From contig JBMNMA010000009.1 of NCBI GenBank assembly GCA_050953105.1, forward strand, positions 261,143-325,142: a DNA stretch of 64,000 nt. The letters run 5' to 3'. The notes beneath the pieces were generated by a model that saw only the letters and a program-made list of their open reading frames with translations, ran no database searches and was not told the DNA's origin. Of this stretch, positions 54,558-64,000 are shown piece after piece. Position numbers and translations under genes: made by a program. Each line of letters opens with the position of its first letter. The stretch's first letter is position 1. This DNA comes from Eubacteriales bacterium. Lineage in GTDB: Bacteria; Bacillota; Clostridia; Oscillospirales; CAG-382.

Positions 54558-54902
54558 ATGCCGAAGGTGCTGAAAAAATTTAATCCTGGTACACGGAACA
54601 GAAAAATCTGCGACTGTCTCAGGAGAGTCGCAGATTTATCATTCGTGGACAAAATTTATATTTACGGCTCCTACGCCAAGGGCAACCCCACCGAAAACAG
54701 TGACCTTGATATTGCCGTTTTTTTTAACCTTGATGAGTCGAAAATGCTTGAATGCTATCGAAAGCTGGTTAACATTTGTCGAATACCGGAACTGGACATT
54801 CAGATACAGGCATTCCCTTCAAGCGAGCTTATAAGCCCCTGCGGAATTATTGAGGAGATAGTGAAATACGGCATTCTTTTTCCCTTTTTCCTGAAAGGAT
54901 AA
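54558..54902 (+). CDS. Minimal nucleotidyltransferase (MNT, Pol-beta superfamily)
   Basis: IYIYGSYAKG....NSDLDIAV motif; DIQIQAF...GIIEEIVKYG C-terminal pattern. Confidence 0.88.
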   Translation: MPKVLKKFNPGTRNRKICDCLRRVADLSFVDKIYIYGSYAKGNPTENSDLDIAVFFNLDESKMLECYRKLVNICRIPELDIQIQAFPSSELISPCGIIEEIVKYGILFPFFLKG

Positions 54903-54907
54903 CTTAA

Positions 54908-55863
54908 ATGGAAGGCGTATTCATCAATAAACGGAATACGGATAGCAATACACCTGAAGTAAATTCGTGCAGGTGTAAAGCTTCTTGCAAAATTTGGCGA
55001 CATGGAAATAATGGAACAATCATTTATCGAAGGTGCTACAGTTTGGCTTTCCCCTGCAGAAGATCCGAACGCATGTGAATTTTACTTTATTCATTCCGGC
55101 GAAGTTGAATTGAACTTGATCGATGAAACTGTTCCTTAAGCCGGTGACTCCTTTACGTTAAAGGGCTTAAACGTGACATTAATCGTAAATCAAACTTAAC
55201 ACAAAGATAGTTTATTTTTCAACAAACCTATTTATGAAGAAAAAAAGGATTTTGAAATCTATCTAAAAGCATTGATTACACAAATCGACTCAAAAGACCA
55301 TTATACCGCCCGTCATAGTATGAATGTAATGAATTATGCTGTAAAAATTTACGAAACAATGTTTGAGTCGTATAAAGACATGGATAACGAAGCGAAATTA
55401 AAAGATGCTTAAAGATATTGTCGTAGCTTCCCTTTTCCATGATGTCGGAAAATGCAATACCCCCGACGAAATATTAAAAAAGAAGGGCAAACTTGAGTCG
55501 GAAGAAATGAAAGTCATTAGGCACCATCCCGTTGATACGGGCAGGCTGCTTAGAAAATATTATAACAACAGGATAGCCGAGATAGCCGAAAATCACCATG
55601 AACGGATTGACGGTTCGGGTTATCCCTTTGGCCTTTCTGGCCACGAATTATCTACCGAAGCCAAAATACTTGCGGTTGTGGACGCCTTTGACGCCATGAC
55701 CACCGACCGGGGATACAACAACGTCAAGTCCTTTGCCGATGCTGCCGAGGAACTGTATAACCTTCCCCACCTCTTTGACCACGAGGTGGCGTCGGTGCTG
55801 AAAAGGCTTGTAGACGAAGGAAAAATAGCACAGGCAAGGAAGAAGAACGATGGACAGCAATGA
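54908..55863 (+). pseudogene. Cupin + HD-GYP phosphodiesterase gene with multiple frameshifts in the 5' half
   Basis: Fragments across frames: MEGVFINK.., AGVKLLAKFGD..EFYFIHSGEVEL (cupin), GDSF, TKIVYFST, DSKDHYTARHS, then intact FHDVGK, HHERIDGSGYP, DAFDAMTTDRGY from 55405. Confidence 0.8.
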
Positions 55864-56311
55864 AAAATACGCCTATTGGCTTATGCTTTCGGATTATGAT
55901 ATGGACACTATTGACTGCTTAATAAAGGGCGAGCGGTGGGTTTATGTGGCCTACCTATGCCAGCAGGCAATAGAACGGCAGCTTAAGGGCATGTATGTTT
56001 ACTATACCAACAACGAAGCTCCCAAAACCCACAATGTAAATTTCCTGTTTTCGAAAATCCAAAGCAACGAAAAATTCCAGTCCCACCCGGATATTGTCAG
56101 GTTTAACGAGGGAAAGACCGAATGTGAGGATTTTTTGGTGGACGTTATGTTTTACTACATGTCCGACTATCCCTTTTCCTACAAAAACATAACAAACCGG
56201 TTTATAAACAAGGAAAACGCCCTTGGACTGTATGAAAAAACCAAAACCATGTTATCCTGGCTCCGCTCTTTTCAGCCCCATGTGGATATACCGAAACCCT
56301 ATAAAGATTAA
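55850..56311 (+). CDS. HEPN domain protein (PF05168-type)
   Basis: YWL..SDYDMDT, YVAYLCQQAIERQLKG, APKTHNV; overlaps the HD-GYP stop. Confidence 0.85.
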   Translation: MDSNEKYAYWLMLSDYDMDTIDCLIKGERWVYVAYLCQQAIERQLKGMYVYYTNNEAPKTHNVNFLFSKIQSNEKFQSHPDIVRFNEGKTECEDFLVDVMFYYMSDYPFSYKNITNRFINKENALGLYEKTKTMLSWLRSFQPHVDIPKPYKD

Positions 56312-56335
56312 CCCCTGAAACGGGGTTTTTATTTT
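56310..56335 (+). terminator. Terminator closing the riboswitch operon
   Basis: AACCCC-TGAAAC-GGGGTT-TTTATTTT. Confidence 0.75.
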
Positions 56336-56433
56336 GTCTGCCCATATAACAGCAAAACCCCGCATTTGAGGGTGCGTCTTAGGGATTTTCAATCCCGGAA
56401 AAATATCGGCATAGTTTGGTATGTATTTACCGG

Positions 56434-58167
<1,734 letters not shown>

Positions 58168-58180
58168 TCAAGTTATTTGT

Positions 58181-58342
58181 TTAAAAAGCCTTATTTAATT
58201 CAAGATTTGCTGTGCCGTTAAGTATCATGCGTTTCAGCTTGTCGTAAGCAGTCTCTTTGGCAGTGCTGCTGACCGCCGATTCTATAATGTAGAGCGTATC
58301 ACCGATTACTTTTTCGGTAACGCTGATAGTCTTTTCAGACAT
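58181..58342 (-). CDS. tnpW: Transposon-encoded TnpW family protein
   Basis: KVIGDTLYIIESAVSSTAKETAYDKLKRMI; directly upstream of the recombinase; GGAG RBS. Confidence 0.8.
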   Translation of the reverse strand: MSEKTISVTEKVIGDTLYIIESAVSSTAKETAYDKLKRMILNGTANLELNKAF

Positions 58343-58367
58343 AAAGACACTCCTCCTTCCTGACTCT

Positions 58368-58462
58368 GGGGGTAGGGGGTAATAAATCCTTACACCCTTT
58401 CGATTGTGCAACGGGCGTGGGGTTTCGCGCGAAAAAACGCGGATTCAAACGGGGTATTAAAG
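58368..58462 (+). other. Candidate cos/packaging-site-like sequence
   Basis: GGGGGTAGGGGGT..AAATCC..AACGGGCGTGGGG..CGCGCGAAAAAACGCGGATTCAAACGGGG resembles non-coding regions next to terS in Firmicutes cos phages (pattern recall only). Confidence 0.35.
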
Positions 58463-58583
58463 GAACAACCGGGATAAAATTCATATAATTGAAATAAACT
58501 TGGTGTGTATTTCATCTTGAAAAGTGCTTTTTTAGGTGAAAAGGCACAGCAGGATTTTCCACTGTGCCTTTCCACCATATGTC

Positions 58584-59531
58584 TTAACCGTTGGTTCCAG
58601 TATTCTTCTGAATTACCTTCACTGCCTCTTGGCGGATAAGTTTTCCGTCAATAAACTCAAAGGCAAGGTAACCCATCTGGTCGAGCAGGGCAAACTTCTC
58701 TGAGAGTGCCCTCACGCTGACAGGGCTTCTGCAGATGATCCAGTAGTAGCTAAAATCACCGAAGGCTATAGGCTTTGAATCAGACTCCATATCCGGCATA
58801 AACTCTGATATAAATACCTTTTTACCGAGGATGGTATCATCGCTGTCGCGCCAGAGGTAGTTTCCGGCTTCGTCTTTCAACGTACGCAAGGCAAGGGCTG
58901 TCTTATCGTTCATGAGCCATACAGCATTTTTGCGGTATTCCGGCTTCACAGAGAAGTACAGGCGGATTATATGATCATAGGTGATTTCATCGACGGAATA
59001 TGCAACCTCAGCGCCGTTTGCATCGTTTAAGATACCTGTCGGCATTTGCACACCGGTACCGTTAATAAAGGCGTTGTCCTCAGCTTTGGCAAAGTTCCTG
59101 GCAAGGCGCTTTACAAGGTAGCTTTCAATGTCGAATGCGGCATCGCGGACAAAGTCTGAATTCATTTTTACAAGAGCAGCGAGCTTATGGCTTTCAACGG
59201 TGTATTGAGTGAAATCGTTTAGTCCGTCAAAAACTGGGATAGCGCCGCCTTCCGGCACAAATTGCACAAGGTCATCGTATTCCTTTGCAAGGATGTGATA
59301 ACTGCCTTCATATACGTTAAAGGTTGTGCCGATTTTACGGAACAGGCTCTCGTTTATGATGGCTGCTTCATATTTGTTATTTGTGGTATTTGGCATGACA
59401 TAAGTACCCGTCTCGCTGCTGCGGCCTTCGGAAAGTCCAGAATAATCGCTTTCCTGGCCGCGCATGGCGTTCCAGAAGTGCCTGCTGTATTCCGGCTGAC
59501 CGGTATATACTCTGACTTCAGTATAATTCAT
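58584..59531 (-). CDS. HK97-fold phage major capsid-like protein with a short N-terminus
   Basis: GTYVMP, FVPEGG.IP, HKLAALVKMNSDFVRD, AFINGTG..MPTGIL, WLMN, PIAFGDFSYY, RIDGK-like FIDGKLIRQEA; start ATG 59531 behind GGAGG. Confidence 0.9.
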   Translation of the reverse strand: MNYTEVRVYTGQPEYSRHFWNAMRGQESDYSGLSEGRSSETGTYVMPNTTNNKYEAAIINESLFRKIGTTFNVYEGSYHILAKEYDDLVQFVPEGGAIPVFDGLNDFTQYTVESHKLAALVKMNSDFVRDAAFDIESYLVKRLARNFAKAEDNAFINGTGVQMPTGILNDANGAEVAYSVDEITYDHIIRLYFSVKPEYRKNAVWLMNDKTALALRTLKDEAGNYLWRDSDDTILGKKVFISEFMPDMESDSKPIAFGDFSYYWIICRSPVSVRALSEKFALLDQMGYLAFEFIDGKLIRQEAVKVIQKNTGTNG

Positions 59532-59544
59532 GGCGTTCCCCTCC

Positions 59545-59850
59545 TTAAATCTTATCGCAGAATGGACAGGCATAGAGACCGAGGTCATGGTAGCTGAGCG
59601 ATCTTCCTACCTGTTTCAAGTGGTGGTGGCATTTCGGACACAGAATGCTATATGCCATAGCCCCTTCAATGGTATGAGGATGCTTTGCATGGAGGCGGTA
59701 TCGCAATTTTAACTTTCCTTTATCATCTTCGATGACAACATCGGAAAGATGCAGGTCGCACATGGCATGGGCATACTCATCGGAATAATAAGTGTGCTGC
59801 GGCCGCAGCAGAGTGCCTTCCTTGTTCATTTTCATAAGCGGATAATTCAT
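59545..59850 (-). CDS. Small Zn-finger hypothetical protein
   Basis: CPKC...CPFC; GGAGG RBS before ATG 59850. Confidence 0.7.
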   Translation of the reverse strand: MNYPLMKMNKEGTLLRPQHTYYSDEYAHAMCDLHLSDVVIEDDKGKLKLRYRLHAKHPHTIEGAMAYSILCPKCHHHLKQVGRSLSYHDLGLYACPFCDKI

Positions 59851-59973
59851 GTTTTTTCCCTCCTCAAAATTAAGATGTTTGAATGTGGTTGATGATATTT
59901 CCTGTAGATCTAATTGCTGAGCGCTGATCATGACGTATCACTATAGCTGTTCCTCCCTCCAGTGATACTTCCG

Positions 59974-60269
59974 GTGACAGAAGTGACAGTTCAGTGACAG
60001 TAGTTTTGATGAACTGTCACGCTGAAAAGCGGCTTGCAGCAAGGCTTTTAAAGCTTCAGTGACGAAAGTGACAGAACTTTTCATTTCATACTCACAACAA
60101 CTCATAATCTTTTCCTTGTTCTCTGTACAATTCCAAACTTTATTCTTCCCGCTAAGAAGTTTGAAAGACTGTCACTTCTGTCACTTGTGGCTGGAAACCC
60201 TTGATATATGGGCGTTTTCGCGGTGACAGTTGCCTGTGAGAACTGTCACTCGACTGTCACTTCTGTCAC
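59974..60269. repeat. Iteron array, putative replication origin
   Basis: GTGACAG at 59974, 59983, 59994, 60068, 60223; CTGTCAC at 60014, 60169, 60178, 60243, 60254, 60263; variant GTGACGA at 60059. Confidence 0.88.
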
Positions 60270-60271
60270 TT

Positions 60272-61411
60272 TTAAGAAAGAAAATCCGTACTGTCATAAC
60301 CATAAGCCTTCTTGTACTGCTCCTTTGCCTCAATAGTGAGGGTGAGATTTTTATAATAGGTGCCTTTATTGGTATGAACGGTCATCTCCTTAAAGGTGCA
60401 GCCGAGATGGGATGCCAATGTCTCTCTGAACTCTTTGGCTGTCTTGGCAAAGCCGTTATTGTTGTCATGGCACCATGCCCTGTAAACATCATAGATGCGG
60501 CTCGTTGTAGCGGAATCATTAAACTTGCCTTCTGACCGCTCGCACATACATTCCTCATAGAAGGAGATCACAGTATTGTTCTCTGACATATATTGCTCTC
60601 TTGCAAGGCTTACACTGTCCGGCTCGGGAAAGCTGTACCCGTTTGCAATAACCGTCTGCAGCGCCATAACAGCCTTGTAGACGATGCCATCACGCTCGGC
60701 ATACATTTTGTCAAGGAGTGTTTTGTCCTGCTTGTCCTTTGGAATGACATTAGGGCAGCGCACCACCATGATGCGGTCATAGACCCATTTGCCATCATCG
60801 CCGCCAAACTTGGGAAGTCTGTTCATGCAAAACCAGAGCAGCCCGTTGTAGGTGAACTCAAAGGCCTGCTGTCCTTTGAACTCGGCATATAGGCTGTCGC
60901 CGCCGGTAATTTTCTTAAATGTTTTCAACTCATCTACGGATAAAAAACTCATATCAGAGCTACCGGCAAGGCGTGTGCCATATATCGCGCCGGTGCCGAA
61001 ACGCGCTTCAATCTCCTTAAGGTCGATTCCTATAAAGTTACCCTTGCCGAGCAACCGCTCTACAAGACTCTTTAGCTGAGATTTGCCGGTGTCGCCATCG
61101 CCGACAAGGAAAAGCGCTTTTTTCATTCGCCATCCCTTGATGTTGGAGATGCATACACCGATAAACTCAAGGAGCAGGTGTTCTATGGCCTTGTCTCCGT
61201 CCGTGAGGGTGTGCATATACCTGTCGAAGACCGGCGTGGGCGTTTCCCTTCCCGACCAGTTGCACGGAATCTGAATGGTGGAGAGGATATCCGGGGAGTG
61301 TGGTAGAAGAATGGCATTATCTGCAGTGATACGGAGCAGGCCATTCCTGAAGTTGATTAAATCCTCATCGGCATTTAGCTCGCCGTTTTGTCCACCTCCT
61401 CTCCGCTGCAT
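60272..61411 (-). CDS. P4/D5-family primase-helicase, SF3 helicase part only (N-terminal primase domain absent)
   Basis: INFRNGLL, LLPHSPD..ST.QIP (D5_N), GDGDTGKS Walker A, KKITGGD, NRLP, DRIMVVRC. Confidence 0.85.
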   Translation of the reverse strand: MQRRGGGQNGELNADEDLINFRNGLLRITADNAILLPHSPDILSTIQIPCNWSGRETPTPVFDRYMHTLTDGDKAIEHLLLEFIGVCISNIKGWRMKKALFLVGDGDTGKSQLKSLVERLLGKGNFIGIDLKEIEARFGTGAIYGTRLAGSSDMSFLSVDELKTFKKITGGDSLYAEFKGQQAFEFTYNGLLWFCMNRLPKFGGDDGKWVYDRIMVVRCPNVIPKDKQDKTLLDKMYAERDGIVYKAVMALQTVIANGYSFPEPDSVSLAREQYMSENNTVISFYEECMCERSEGKFNDSATTSRIYDVYRAWCHDNNNGFAKTAKEFRETLASHLGCTFKEMTVHTNKGTYYKNLTLTIEAKEQYKKAYGYDSTDFLS

Positions 61412-61423
61412 TTTGTGCTTCCA

Positions 61424-61600
61424 TTATTCATTCGCCGAGTTTATGACCAGCCACTCCTTAAAGGCTTCAACCGGAATCAGGATTCTCGTACCAACTCGTA
61501 TGACTGGAAATCCCTGCTTTTTTACAAGTTCATAGGCCTTCGGCAGACTAATGCCCATCTGCGCCGACAGTTCCTGCACACTCATGGTCGTCTTTTCCAT
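61424..61600 (-). CDS. Excisionase-like HTH_17 protein
   Basis: MSVQELSAQMGISLPKAYELVK..GFPVIRVG.RILIP..AFKEW; AGGAGG RBS. Confidence 0.88.
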   Translation of the reverse strand: MEKTTMSVQELSAQMGISLPKAYELVKKQGFPVIRVGTRILIPVEAFKEWLVINSANE

Positions 61601-61832
61601 ATACTCTTTCCTCCTTATCTTGATAGTTGTTTCGGTTTCCACATCCACCATTCGCTACCGTTCCTAAGGCAGCCACCTGCTCGTGGTCTCCCCGTATCCG
61701 ATTGCAGCAGAAGCGCTCCGGCTTTCACCATCGTGGCGGCTACGCTGCAAAAGTATCTCTTGCGGGCGGACTATTCAGTTGTCAAGGATCCGGAAATTAA
61801 GTGGTTTTACAATTTGTTCTTGTATTCAATGC

Positions 61833-61878
61833 CATTGTATAATACAATGTAAGTGATGTTAAATTTTCATCGCTTACA
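61833..61878. promoter_or_regulatory. Inverted repeats over divergent promoters
   Basis: CATTGTAT-A-ATACAATG (contains TATAAT) and TGTAAGTGATG-N9-CATCGCTTACA. Confidence 0.6.
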
Positions 61879-61907
61879 ATAACGATTACATTCAAAGGAT
61901 GATTGCC

Positions 61908-62858
61908 ATGAAAAAACTACCGGTAGAAAATCTCGGTTTCGTTGAAATTGGCGGCGTTGGCGAGATGATATATAGGGCTGTGCGATTTCCCGAGTATATC
62001 ACGGACTATGACAATGACGGCGAAATAATTAAACCTATCTTCACAGGGGGCCATGCTCCGGAAAGCGGTACTGATTACTCCTTAACCGGGCAGGAACTAT
62101 TGGTCAGCCTATGTAATCTTTACGGAAAATTAAATAACCCAGACAGCACTGTTCCGGTTACAGATGCCGTCTGGGATTGGTGCAGAAACAATATTCACCC
62201 CTACAACATAGACAGTCTTTATGAAATGCTGGATAGCGAGAAGTTTGCACATATAACGTACATGGATTTGATTCAGAAAGATGCCACATTCTATGTAGAT
62301 CAATTCATAAAGGATCTATGCAGTCTGGGTACTGTATTTGAGCTTTACTTTGCCTTGAGAAGGGTTAAATACTACGGAGAAATCGACTACGCAAGGAATC
62401 TTTATTATGAAGGCAGGCTTTGCGACAGCCTCGCTTTTCTTGAAAGACACCGACAATACGAGGATGATGAGGAATACAAGGCCCGTATATTAGAGAATTA
62501 CAATGAACACATATCCCAAGTGATTGATATGTTCCCGGACTTCCGTATGAGACTGAAATTGGATAAGAAAACCGGGAAAGTGATGTACGGCGCCGACATT
62601 CAATCGGTATTCGATATTTGCTGGTACACCTTTTCCAGAATGGTAGCAGACGTTGCACCACCAGTAGATGAAGACCTTAACTATTTTGAATCGCAAGGCA
62701 CGATACTGTCATGCCTTGCCTGCGGGAAATACTTTGTGCGGCATTCAAGCCGCCAGTTATATTGTAATAATTGGGATTGCCAGGCCGAGCGTAATCGAAA
62801 AAACAGGCGAGCAAGCTATGCAAGAAAGAAGGCGGCGGGAGTAAAGAACAAGGAATAA
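61908..62858 (+). CDS. Hypothetical protein with a C-terminal CGNR-like Zn finger
   Basis: CLACGKYF..HSSRQLYC..WDCQAERNRKNRR; divergent from the xis/rep operon. Confidence 0.7.
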   Translation: MKKLPVENLGFVEIGGVGEMIYRAVRFPEYITDYDNDGEIIKPIFTGGHAPESGTDYSLTGQELLVSLCNLYGKLNNPDSTVPVTDAVWDWCRNNIHPYNIDSLYEMLDSEKFAHITYMDLIQKDATFYVDQFIKDLCSLGTVFELYFALRRVKYYGEIDYARNLYYEGRLCDSLAFLERHRQYEDDEEYKARILENYNEHISQVIDMFPDFRMRLKLDKKTGKVMYGADIQSVFDICWYTFSRMVADVAPPVDEDLNYFESQGTILSCLACGKYFVRHSSRQLYCNNWDCQAERNRKNRRASYARKKAAGVKNKE

Positions 62859-62866
62859 AAATTGAA

Positions 62867-62903
62867 CTCGCTACCAGCCACATGGTATGAGTATGGTAGC
62901 GAG
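62867..62903. terminator. Hairpin between convergent genes
   Basis: CTCGCTACCA/TGGTAGCGAG 10-bp stem. Confidence 0.55.
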
Positions 62904-62917
62904 ACAGATGTGGTTTA

Positions 62918-64000
62918 TTAATCTCTCTTTAATATTTCACACAGAGGCAGAATTTCTTCCAGCTTTTTAACAATGCGCTTTTGCTCTGCGAGGGGCGGGA
63001 GAGGTATTAGTGCATTTTTCAACATATCTTGCGTTATTTGATTAATGGTGGTAGTACCAGTATCTTCAAGCAAGGAATTCCTGAAATATGCTGAATTTAT
63101 TACATGAAGAACATACGGATTGCAAATACTTCTATAAACTGCCATGAATGCGCCGAAGCTCATGCCTTCTCGATCCACAATTGCAGCTTTGCCTACAAGC
63201 CGTTTGCTGCCATTCCGAGCGCAAATTAAAATATCACCTATATGGCACATCTTGTTTTCGGGAATATCCATATTGACTCTTACAATATCTTCATAGTCCA
63301 TCTGACCATCTCGGATATTGTTGGATCGTAGCACAATTGTACCATCACTTGTTTGATTCTGAGGACTATATGTTAGGCCAATATTTGTATAACCAATTTC
63401 ACCTAATTTAACCCACTTCCAACTCTCTGGAATATCAAACGGTATCTCAGCCTCTGAAATTTCTGGCAATGGTTTTTCTTTTTTGATTTTTCCTTCCTTA
63501 ATAAGTCTTTGCTTTTCAACCTGAATCTGTTGATAAAGCTCCTCGGCTGTGCCTTCCTCCGGGCGCTGTTCGACCAGTTTGCCCCGGATTGCTAACTGGA
63601 GGATGGATTTATGCAGATCGCTCGGGAAACGCTTATTGAGCTCTTCAAGCTTGCTCCATGCCTTATCATAGCGCTCGATATACGGCATCAATTCATCGAT
63701 TTTTGCAACAATGCGCTTTTGCTCGGCAAGTGGTGGGAGGGGAACAGAAAGTTTGTGCAAAACCTTTGAAGATAAACCTTGAATTCCAATCCCTTTTCCA
63801 TTTATAAGACCTGCATTTTTGTACAAAAAGAAAATATAATAAAAGAACTCAATACAGATTTCATTAAATGGACGTAATCTGTGTATATGATTCTGAATAC
63901 GCATAGGAAAATCATAATTCCAGATAGCTGCTCTTCCAATATCGCCACCTTCTAGAACTAATAAATCTCCTTTTTGAACAGTACATTTTTCAATTTCAGC
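62918..64000 (-). CDS. hsdS: Type I restriction-modification specificity subunit (5' end outside the window)
   Basis: Frame open to the window edge (KGDLLVLEGGDIGRAAIW), two PLPPLAEQKRIV repeats, EIPFDIPESWKWVKLG linker. Confidence 0.92.
   Translation of the reverse strand, partial: AEIEKCTVQKGDLLVLEGGDIGRAAIWNYDFPMRIQNHIHRLRPFNEICIEFFYYIFFLYKNAGLINGKGIGIQGLSSKVLHKLSVPLPPLAEQKRIVAKIDELMPYIERYDKAWSKLEELNKRFPSDLHKSILQLAIRGKLVEQRPEEGTAEELYQQIQVEKQRLIKEGKIKKEKPLPEISEAEIPFDIPESWKWVKLGEIGYTNIGLTYSPQNQTSDGTIVLRSNNIRDGQMDYEDIVRVNMDIPENKMCHIGDILICARNGSKRLVGKAAIVDREGMSFGAFMAVYRSICNPYVLHVINSAYFRNSLLEDTGTTTINQITQDMLKNALIPLPPLAEQKRIVKKLEEILPLCEILKRD

Follow-up and report, generated by a model that had tools for sequence, protein, structure and literature searches.

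What does a phage-type capsid protein do when most of its scaffolding domain is missing and no other head gene accompanies it? The question is raised by a minus-strand gene for a 315-residue HK97-type protein in a stretch of 64,000 nucleotides from the genome of a Eubacteriales bacterium (GenBank assembly GCA_050953105.1, contig JBMNMA010000009.1, positions 261,143 to 325,142; hereafter the window, from whose first nucleotide coordinates are counted). A first-pass annotation of the window had offered three options for this protein: a Ccm-like redirector of capsid size, a factor that interferes with phages, or a subunit of an encapsulin-like shell. The gene is probably a functional HK97-fold paralogue and the hallmark gene of a large family of integrative elements of 7.7-12 kb in Bacillota. 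The element in the window is small, widespread and mobile, and seems equipped to hijack the machinery with which a helper phage makes capsids and packages DNA. We suggest that it probably belongs to a new family of cos-type phage satellites in Bacillota, in which a capsid subunit without the scaffold "tower" would co-assemble with the helper capsid protein, as Ccm of the Staphylococcus aureus pathogenicity island (SaPI) SaPIbov5 does.

The capsid protein is predicted to retain the spoke and to lack the tower of the scaffolding domain

The capsid open reading frame (ORF) starts with an ATG at 59531, 14 nt past the stop codon of the upstream gene and 6-7 nt behind an AAGGAGG ribosome-binding site. 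The Pfam profile PF05065 (Phage_capsid) matches residues 42-308 with its positions 1-279 of 280 (E 2e-66; 224.6 bits, cut-off 24.2), TIGR01554 (major_cap_HK97) matches residues 17-308 with positions 85-384 of 385 (240 bits, cut-off 27.5), and the protein also matches PHROG 10 (major head protein). As the TIGR01554 match sets in at position 85, about 84 N-terminal profile positions are missing from the protein. The first-pass annotation had described a short ORF with an early GTYVMP motif, which we confirm (residues 42-47), and had considered that an upstream start might restore a full scaffold. This possibility is ruled out: the in-frame ATG at 59588 would add just 19 residues and overlap the upstream gene, and the frame up to it is closed in two of the ten closest loci (L007 and L008). 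A start at 59588 was therefore rejected.

An AlphaFold2 model built on 103 diverse homologues reached a predicted local distance difference test score (pLDDT) of 94.3 and a predicted template modelling score (pTM) of 0.90; an alignment of 30 close homologues gave pLDDT 46. The model contains the HK97 fold with N-arm, E-loop, P domain with spine helix and A domain. Foldseek returned 342 PDB matches at E up to 0.001 and, among the matches listed, capsid proteins of phages, gene transfer agents (GTAs) and satellites came out on top. In VIA-align superpositions, the best solved match was the capsid protein of the Rhodobacter capsulatus GTA (RcGTA; Z 20.4, root-mean-square deviation (rmsd) 4.4, 246 residues aligned), with Z 19.4 for the capsid protein of the capsid-forming phage-inducible chromosomal island (cf-PICI) EcCI2 and Z 16.5-17.3 for HK97 proheads and heads.

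Procapsids that still bear part of their scaffold are the informative comparisons for the N-terminal region. Model residues 14-311 superimpose on residues 76-383 of HK97 prohead I (Z 16.7, rmsd 4.9, 247 residues aligned), and model residues 11-311 on residues 81-394 of D3 prohead 1. According to those parts of Huet et al. 2023 on which we draw (PMC10275583), the HK97 scaffold domain comprises 103 residues, of which residues 2-66 form coiled-coil towers that contact the portal and residues 76-103 a helix-turn-strand "spoke" beneath the capsomer, and HK97 capsid protein without the scaffold domain aggregates. With these limits, an alignment that begins at HK97 residue 76 indicates a capsid protein without the tower and with the spoke. 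On the model, the last ~25 residues of the delta (scaffolding) domain, i.e. the spoke, are kept, the ~65-residue coiled-coil tower is lost and the whole shell-forming fold is retained. A full N-terminal delta domain of ~100 residues with a tower is absent from the window protein, and the earlier statement that most of this domain is gone can be sharpened to loss of the tower with retention of the spoke.

Conservation of the short form

A word-indexed search yielded 2311 homologues with E of 0.001 or below; among the 120 highest-ranking ones listed, 112 have a length of 308-324 residues. An exhaustive search of representatives at 50% identity gave 12348 matches with E of 0.001 or below, 350 of which reached 1e-30 or lower, with short forms predominating among the top-scoring ones. 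Sorting the surrounding loci by capsid identity, we distinguish element-type loci (44% or more) from phage-type loci (41% or less). In 63 element-type loci, the open frame further upstream (0-85 codons) is not conserved, and in 40 of them no more than 8 codons separate the first in-frame ATG from the start of the window gene; phage-type relatives have 75-99 additional codons (60/60).

In the alignment of 103 sequences, 24-67 residues precede the conserved Pro47 in 70 short forms and 96-151 residues in 33 long forms. A FastTree phylogeny computed from core columns only placed all 33 long forms inside one clade of 39 rows (99% local support) and 64 of the 70 short rows outside it; the six short rows inside this clade may be mis-called starts. 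Because the FastTree supports are local and the tree has no fixed root, its topology is compatible with gain as well as with loss of the tower. The 41 N-terminal residues are conserved, with Y15, F19, W20, R24 and G25 invariant in 30 sequences, and the ratio of nonsynonymous to synonymous substitution rates (dN/dS) of the capsid gene is 0.14-0.23 against nine close relatives. These comparisons indicate that the short form is a large, diverse clade under selection and not a start mis-call. Of 300 genomes sampled from the class, 84 match Phage_capsid and ten have a short high-scoring form; a long form is also present in six of these ten, a weak hint in favour of the satellite reading.

The same data bear on the view that the gene is a truncated remnant of a decayed prophage without present function. 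Such a relic would fit a 1.18-kb deletion in the primase-helicase gene of the window copy and the absence of matching head genes from the genome (see below), but the intact frame, the low dN/dS, the conserved N-terminal residues, the lead of the short forms among the best-scoring library matches and a seven-gene order that is the same in dozens of genomes speak against it. Being contradicted by conservation and selection, the prophage-remnant reading was rejected; we regard it as hardly credible.

The capsid gene is part of a small integrative element

The gene lies in a conserved integrative element that covers about 56354-62905 of the window and probably reaches past the window end (Table 1). 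The order recombinase, TnpW, capsid protein, Zn-ribbon protein, iterons, primase-helicase, helix-turn-helix (HTH) protein and divergent ORF recurs in dozens of genomes; the core measures ~6.5 kb in the window and 7.7 kb in relatives, at the lower end of the family range. Gene-order counts were taken from 77 element-type loci, in each case over those with enough flanking sequence. A recombinase of at least 50% identity follows the capsid gene in 44 of 52 loci, TnpW is found in 52 of 67, the Zn-ribbon gene stands immediately upstream of the capsid gene in 58 of 68, and a D5-type helicase occurs in 39 of 52. The HTH_17 protein is encoded in 30 of the 44 loci with sufficient upstream sequence, and in 31 of 44 the 319-residue ORF and the operon led by HTH_17 are divergently oriented.

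In the relatives, the primase-helicase has 767-768 residues and includes a PrimPol part and the NrS-1 polymerase HBD domain. In the window, the primase-helicase gene is directly followed by the iteron cluster, which holds 11 of the 14 GTGACAG matches of the window in both orientations (2.67 expected window-wide). Of the features that mark satellites, the element has an integrase, a bounded extent far smaller than that of a phage, and a primase-helicase (full-length in relatives) followed by iterons. Searches of the element ORFs with Pfam, PHROGs and NCBIfam detected no portal, prohead protease, head-tail adaptor or terminase, in keeping with the earlier remark on the missing portal and protease, and no relaxase family in any of them; with Pfam, no known encapsulin cargo family was detected adjacent to the capsid gene.

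Copies that are 94-98% identical in nucleotide sequence over 5 kb occur on contigs labelled Peptococcaceae, Christensenellales (a 2.4-Mb contig), Desulfitobacteriia, Clostridium sp. (a chromosome), Lachnoclostridium and the isolate Acetivibrio mesophilus. A 49-kb contig with a near-identical copy was assigned to Burkholderiales, perhaps through an error in binning. Further isolates that carry an element are Acetobacterium carbinolicum DSM 2925, Anaerobium acetethylicum GluBS11 and Syntrophomonas wolfei subsp. methylbutyratica. The genome of the window contains, 130 kb from the first element, another one of the family (C9:447100-452600), which is diverged; this second element encodes a 767-residue PrimPol-helicase, a 299-residue capsid homologue (45% identity), TnpW and a 550-residue recombinase (66%), has no Zn-ribbon gene, and carries the phage-type motif described below 43 nt before the capsid start. 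The Bacillus badius plasmid pPM400 has the same layout in its RefSeq annotation.

A phage hnh-terS sequence accompanies the capsid gene

When the element was compared with phage records by blastn, a stretch of 57-97 nt in the spacer between the capsid and TnpW genes was matched, by the Ca. Heliusvirales gut phage PV036458 (86% identity) and by four Streptococcus Javan prophages (75%). In PV036458 and Javan102, the sequence lies between an HNH endonuclease gene and a gene that matches PHROG 83 (small terminase), with a PHROG 36/248 regulator upstream of it. Both of these annotated phages encode long homologues of the capsid protein (42% and 36% identity, open frames of 439 and 393 residues).

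The core of the motif, ACGGGCGTGGGG-N21-TTCAAA, occupies positions 58411-58449. No occurrence of this pattern is expected by chance in the window; it is found exactly twice in the 2.2-Mb genome, once per element, and in at least 116 IMG/VR contigs. Of the 80 IMG/VR motif contigs with DNA to inspect, 77 have an HNH gene upstream and/or terS downstream, mostly at 36-51 nt, and three are element-type. The ends of IMG/VR contigs near the motif lie at varying distances from it, with no fixed end seen. Among 78 element-type loci, the motif stands beside the capsid gene in 70, and in 62 of these it is inverted and located 55-295 nt past the capsid stop; six loci are cut by contig ends and two are without the motif.

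A structured RNA was considered as an explanation for this conservation. When 56300-63000 was compared with Rfam at a threshold of E 1, a chance match to mir-31 was the sole result, and RNAalifold on 41 motif sequences returned -6.84 kcal/mol with a covariation term of -0.71 and a compensatory change in one of nine pairs. With almost no covariation and no Rfam match, the RNA reading was dropped; a sequence that is conserved in this way fits a DNA site recognized by a protein. The hnh-terS junction is what we take to be the expected position of cos in HNH-dependent cos phages, and one paper, going by its title, reportedly deals with HNH-dependent cos packaging of SaPIs.

Full phage late gene set behind an integration block like that of the element

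Besides its copy of the element (locus L007), A. mesophilus N2K1 carries on a separate contig a block with recombinase, TnpW and motif in the same orientation as in the element. The recombinase of this block is 93% identical to that of the window over all 565 residues. The block continues with terS, a ParB-methyltransferase gene, terL, and genes for a portal, a head protease, a 401-residue capsid protein (35% identical), adaptors, a tape measure protein, tail proteins, a holin and an endolysin. Comparison of this block with the element shows that elements and phages have a unit of integration genes and motif in common. The element resembles a reduced relative that would have exchanged the late genes for a replication module and a tower-less capsid gene.

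At its far end, the N2K1 region (L283 6537-20000, L284 1-16178) contains two more large serine recombinase genes, and a third, identical motif copy is located 148 kb away (L285), beside an IS21-like transposase gene and an integrase fragment. The arrangement in N2K1 may record recombination between satellite and phage at the motif.

A proposed satellite cycle and competing readings

The gene set, the origin, the motif and the integration block shared with phages, and the absence of lysis, portal and terminase genes lead us to the satellite reading. In the cycle that we infer, in each of its steps, an HK97-type temperate phage with HNH, TerS, TerL, portal, protease and long capsid protein would be induced or would infect the cell. 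The element would be excised by its serine recombinase together with TnpW and/or the HTH_17 protein, and would replicate from the iteron origin via the PrimPol-helicase. The helper terminase would then recognize the element's copy of the phage hnh-terS intergenic sequence. Tower-less subunits, unable to nucleate or scaffold alone, would join capsomers with the helper capsid protein, which would provide the scaffold as well as the protease and portal contacts. Such dilution of the scaffold would favour small shells with room for the element but not for the 40-75 kb helper, or would just spoil helper heads. Two of the initial options, the Ccm-like redirector and the interference factor, are favoured by the satellite-like context of the gene and by the phage hnh-terS sequence.

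A number of observations weigh against the satellite reading. In this sequence analysis, no helper was seen, nor any sign of induction, an excision product, packaged DNA or a particle. The assignment of the motif as a cos site is inferred from its position, and a late promoter or operator would fit the upstream spacing equally. In eight of the 78 element-type loci, the motif is found upstream only, in direct orientation and ~40 nt before the first gene of the module, similar to its spacing before terS; in six of the 62 loci with an inverted motif, two inverted copies flank the pair of Zn-ribbon and capsid genes (L010, L025, L082, L083, L086 and L089). For both patterns, a promoter or operator is at least as good an explanation as cos; the two-copy module might be invertible or exchangeable, might have two packaging sites, or might combine a promoter with a site. 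The ten motif-bearing curated phage records are all derived from prophages or metagenomes, none with mapped termini, and the motif lies within the flanks of only one of 63 phage-type loci retrieved by capsid similarity. The 99%-complete genome of the window has no match to PF04860, PF04586, PF03354 or PF05133 and is without an HK97-type portal, protease or long capsid gene. As Ccm keeps its delta domain, this closest precedent is no proof that a tower-less subunit co-assembles. Contigs labelled as different orders of Bacillota hold near-identical copies, which is a broad range for phage-borne transfer. A joint linking the two ends of the element was not found in the contigs of four sequencing runs, although contigs cannot show its absence; the host flank 55600-56133 is uncovered in the contigs of two of these runs. 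Finally, eight small IMG/VR contigs that hold relatives lack terminal repeats.

Some of these points would also suit a function in interference only, in which the element is an integrative plasmid-like defence island that spreads by other transfer (mobilisation or transformation) and the capsid protein is a dominant-negative decoy that poisons heads. We consider this unlikely. Near-identical copies across orders, the lack of packaging genes in the element and the reported aggregation of HK97 capsid protein without its scaffold domain (PMC10275583) speak in its favour, as do the genes at the regulator end of the elements: the window has a type I restriction-modification (R-M) system there, and the same place is taken by genes for DNA methyltransferases or R-M systems (type I, IIG-like, type III, Dam and C5) in the second element, in pPM400 and in about half of 28 other loci. 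R-M systems look like the usual cargo of these elements. However, the conserved hnh-terS sequence has no obvious use for a pure decoy unless it times expression, no relaxase or oriT-type gene was found among the element ORFs, and an identity of 35-42% with phage capsid proteins is low if the protein is to co-assemble broadly.

The protein might instead assemble by itself into a portal-less shell, encapsulin- or procapsid-like, around protein cargo or around the element DNA, which the superfamily 3 (SF3) helicase would perhaps load; we regard this as improbable. The structure is compatible with the encapsulin option of the first-pass annotation: family 1 encapsulins consist of an N-terminal helix and the HK97 fold without a scaffold, and align from about model residue 15, i.e. 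from this helix onward, with Z 15-17, comparable to HK97. Portal-less and tail-less HK97 genomes of 5-11.6 kb with integrase, excisionase and helicase are reported in the portion of Aguilar et al. 2026 available to us, where a satellite lifestyle and alternative packaging are both hypothesised and where T=3 to T=4 capacities are given into which 7.7-12 kb would fit (PMC13669383). Against a shell of this kind stand the sequence kinship with phage capsid proteins and the lack of any match of the window protein to Linocin_M18 (PF04454), even at E up to 10; the capsid copy of the second element reaches 13.9 bits (cut-off 24.3). Moreover, no cargo-type gene was recognized, lysis and delivery genes are absent, and the motif common with phages and the recombinase/TnpW block indicate dependence on a phage.

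A related and likewise improbable alternative is a minimal integrative virus-like entity, in which the tower-less protein alone would close a portal-less shell, DNA would be loaded without terminase and portal (e.g. by the SF3 primase-helicase), and the motif would merely time expression. If true, this would provide a functioning case of the portal-less "twilight-zone" HK97 entities that metagenomes have led others to propose.

Relation to known systems

On the satellite reading, the closest precedent is SaPIbov5 with its helper phi12. As far as the consulted parts of two papers go, cos SaPIs carry a conserved phage cos site and the capsid homologue Ccm, which enters small capsids (PMC5052747, PMC8569155); Ccm has 355 residues including a delta domain of 87 residues, which is cleaved off (PMC8569155). 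In both cases a satellite-type element encodes an HK97-fold homologue without portal, protease or terminase, and the cos copy of SaPIbov5 has its counterpart in the candidate cos site here; the SaPIbov5 procapsid chain 7rwz_B superimposes on the window model with Z 15.0. Unlike Ccm, the window protein has only ~35 residues before the equivalent of the mature N-terminus, and unlike SaPIbov5, the element has a serine recombinase and TnpW, is half the size and resides in anaerobic Bacillota.

With HK97 gp5-type proteins, the window protein shares strong sequence membership and the fold. Its nearest phage relatives (35-42% identity, 393-439 residues) are encoded behind portal and protease genes; unlike them, it has no tower and no adjacent portal or protease gene, its neighbours being the Zn-ribbon, TnpW and recombinase genes. 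The cf-PICI EcCI2 likewise is a satellite that encodes an HK97-fold capsid protein. However, cf-PICIs encode a whole head module with portal, protease, adaptors and terS, of which the window element has the capsid gene only. To our knowledge, known PICIs use tyrosine integrases, in contrast to the serine-type integrase of the window element. Elements of the Tn4451 type (TnpX, TnpW) likewise encode a TnpW family protein and a large serine recombinase whose tail is DUF4368. The Tn4451 family carries the Mob relaxase TnpZ and resistance cargo; the window element, in which no relaxase was found, instead has a primase-helicase, a capsid gene and an iteron origin. Family 1 encapsulins resemble the window protein in layout and length class, and differ in the Linocin_M18 signature that it lacks, in its mobile, phage-linked context and in the absence of a recognized cargo gene.

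The "twilight-zone" mini genomes in the part of Aguilar et al. 2026 available to us have an HK97-fold capsid gene, integrase, excisionase and helicase and are described as lacking portal, tail and terminase (PMC13669383). The dominant group there has encapsulin-type Pfam signatures and a scaffold protein, unlike the window protein, which matches Phage_capsid only. The terms "primase" and "recombinase" are absent from the main text of that paper; its supplements may list related contigs. No published description of the element family was found in a search that left subscription journals and these supplements outside.

If correct, the satellite reading would add a large phage-satellite family in anaerobic Bacillota of gut, rumen, digesters and sediments. 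Its unusual traits would be a serine-recombinase/TnpW block 93% identical to one joined to a full phage late module, frequent R-M cargo, and a capsid subunit with the spoke and without the portal-contacting tower. Loss of the tower suggests a simple route to redirect or spoil assembly through scaffold dilution, and would provide structural virologists with a natural "tower deletion". As isolates hold the element together with a motif-bearing prophage, the shared motif makes it experimentally approachable whether portal-less HK97 mini-genomes, for which a satellite lifestyle is one hypothesis in the portion of Aguilar et al. 2026 cited above (PMC13669383), are satellites or autonomous.

Termini, accessory genes and surroundings of the window element

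Table 1. Features of the integrative element and its right-hand neighbour in the window
Feature	Position	Strand	Basis
Left terminus, recombinase-proximal	56354..56388		Comparison with related loci
Large serine recombinase, TnpX-like, 565 residues	56434..58131	-	Resolvase, Recombinase, Zn_ribbon_recom, DUF4368; PHROG 95 integrase, E 1.6e-100
TnpW family protein, 53 residues	58181..58342	-	PF14202 TnpW, E 2e-11
Conserved phage-type sequence, candidate cos site and/or late-operon control region	58375..58470	+	Similarity to phages
HK97-fold major capsid protein homologue, 315 residues	58584..59531	-	PF05065, TIGR01554, AlphaFold2 model
Zn-ribbon protein, 101 residues	59545..59850	-	Four invariant Cys
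Iteron cluster, putative replication origin	59974..60269		GTGACAG repeats
Truncated primase-helicase (D5_N end, SF3 helicase, Pox_D5)	60272..61411	-	Pfam DUF5906, Pox_D5, D5_N
Junction of ~1.18-kb deletion, window copy only	61371..61381		Alignments break
Excisionase-family HTH protein, 75 residues	61424..61651	-	HTH_17, TIGR01764
Divergent 319-residue ORF, candidate regulator	61899..62858	+	Position
hsdS, type I R-M	62918..64000	-	Methylase_S

The left terminus is supported by nucleotide similarity to 12 related loci, which begins at 56343-56365, and by metagenome contigs that diverge into unlike sequence at 56354 and 56363. On the right, similarity to other genomes stops just past a hairpin (62867-62903) that follows the 319-residue ORF. 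Beyond the window, hsdS is followed by hsdM and hsdR (L146 160-5434), which completes a type I R-M system that is probably cargo of the element. About 12.3 kb from the left terminus, beyond hsdR and outside the window, two collinear stretches of 13 nt and 11 nt match it in inverted orientation (E 0.016 and 0.25), which is weak evidence that this system is cargo.

The primase-helicase gene is damaged in the window copy only: alignments to eight relatives (L001, L002, L005-L009 and L028) break at the junction, with ~1.18 kb absent, and a metagenome contig departs into unlike sequence at 61381/61382. The undeleted form is present on a metagenome contig. The deletion removes the PrimPol-coding part and leaves the remainder of the element intact. 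Having lost the PrimPol domain, the window copy is probably not self-replicating.

For TnpW, we took the ATG behind a ribosome-binding site as the start (the listed ORF extends to a TTG at 58411), and the Zn-ribbon protein was counted from its conserved start (the listed ORF reaches 59931). In 26 homologues of the latter, the four Cys are invariant and the starting Met is the same. The protein has no Pfam match above cut-off, the Atlas gave hypothetical clusters only, and its one phage homologue is the element-like record MT838964. A complex prediction for the capsid protein with this neighbour scored 0.02 against a mark of 0.32 and, being run without controls, speaks neither for nor against an interaction. 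The 319-residue ORF belongs to no Pfam family, and the Atlas clusters closest to it consist of hypothetical proteins, 16% of which have DUF6076 in one cluster.

DNA near-identical to the element was present in six metatranscriptome libraries and in metagenomes of digesters, sludge and bioreactors (at least 14 runs). Contigs of three metatranscriptome libraries from three studies cover the capsid gene, a weak hint of expression given that DNA carry-over is possible.

The sole terminase gene of the window's genome belongs to a phage-like cluster ~100 kb off (C9:424238-432900), which encodes TerL, a portal (PHROG 156), a 168-residue head-protein fragment (PHROG 267), a virion protein and a holin, and is unrelated to the HK97-type module. 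In one genome of the class, a single contig has three short capsid genes at intervals of ~9 kb (G092 C1:341076-359774), which suggests a tandem array of elements.

To the left of the element, genes for a nucleotidyltransferase (54558-54902), an HD-domain protein (55405-55863) and a HEPN protein (55850-56311) may form a small defence or toxin-antitoxin neighbourhood beside the insertion site. The host flank just outside the left terminus (56340-56366; the same in L002, L005 and L007) is A-rich and then contains a run of C that is able to pair with GAGGG of the element end; insertion may target terminator-like hairpins.

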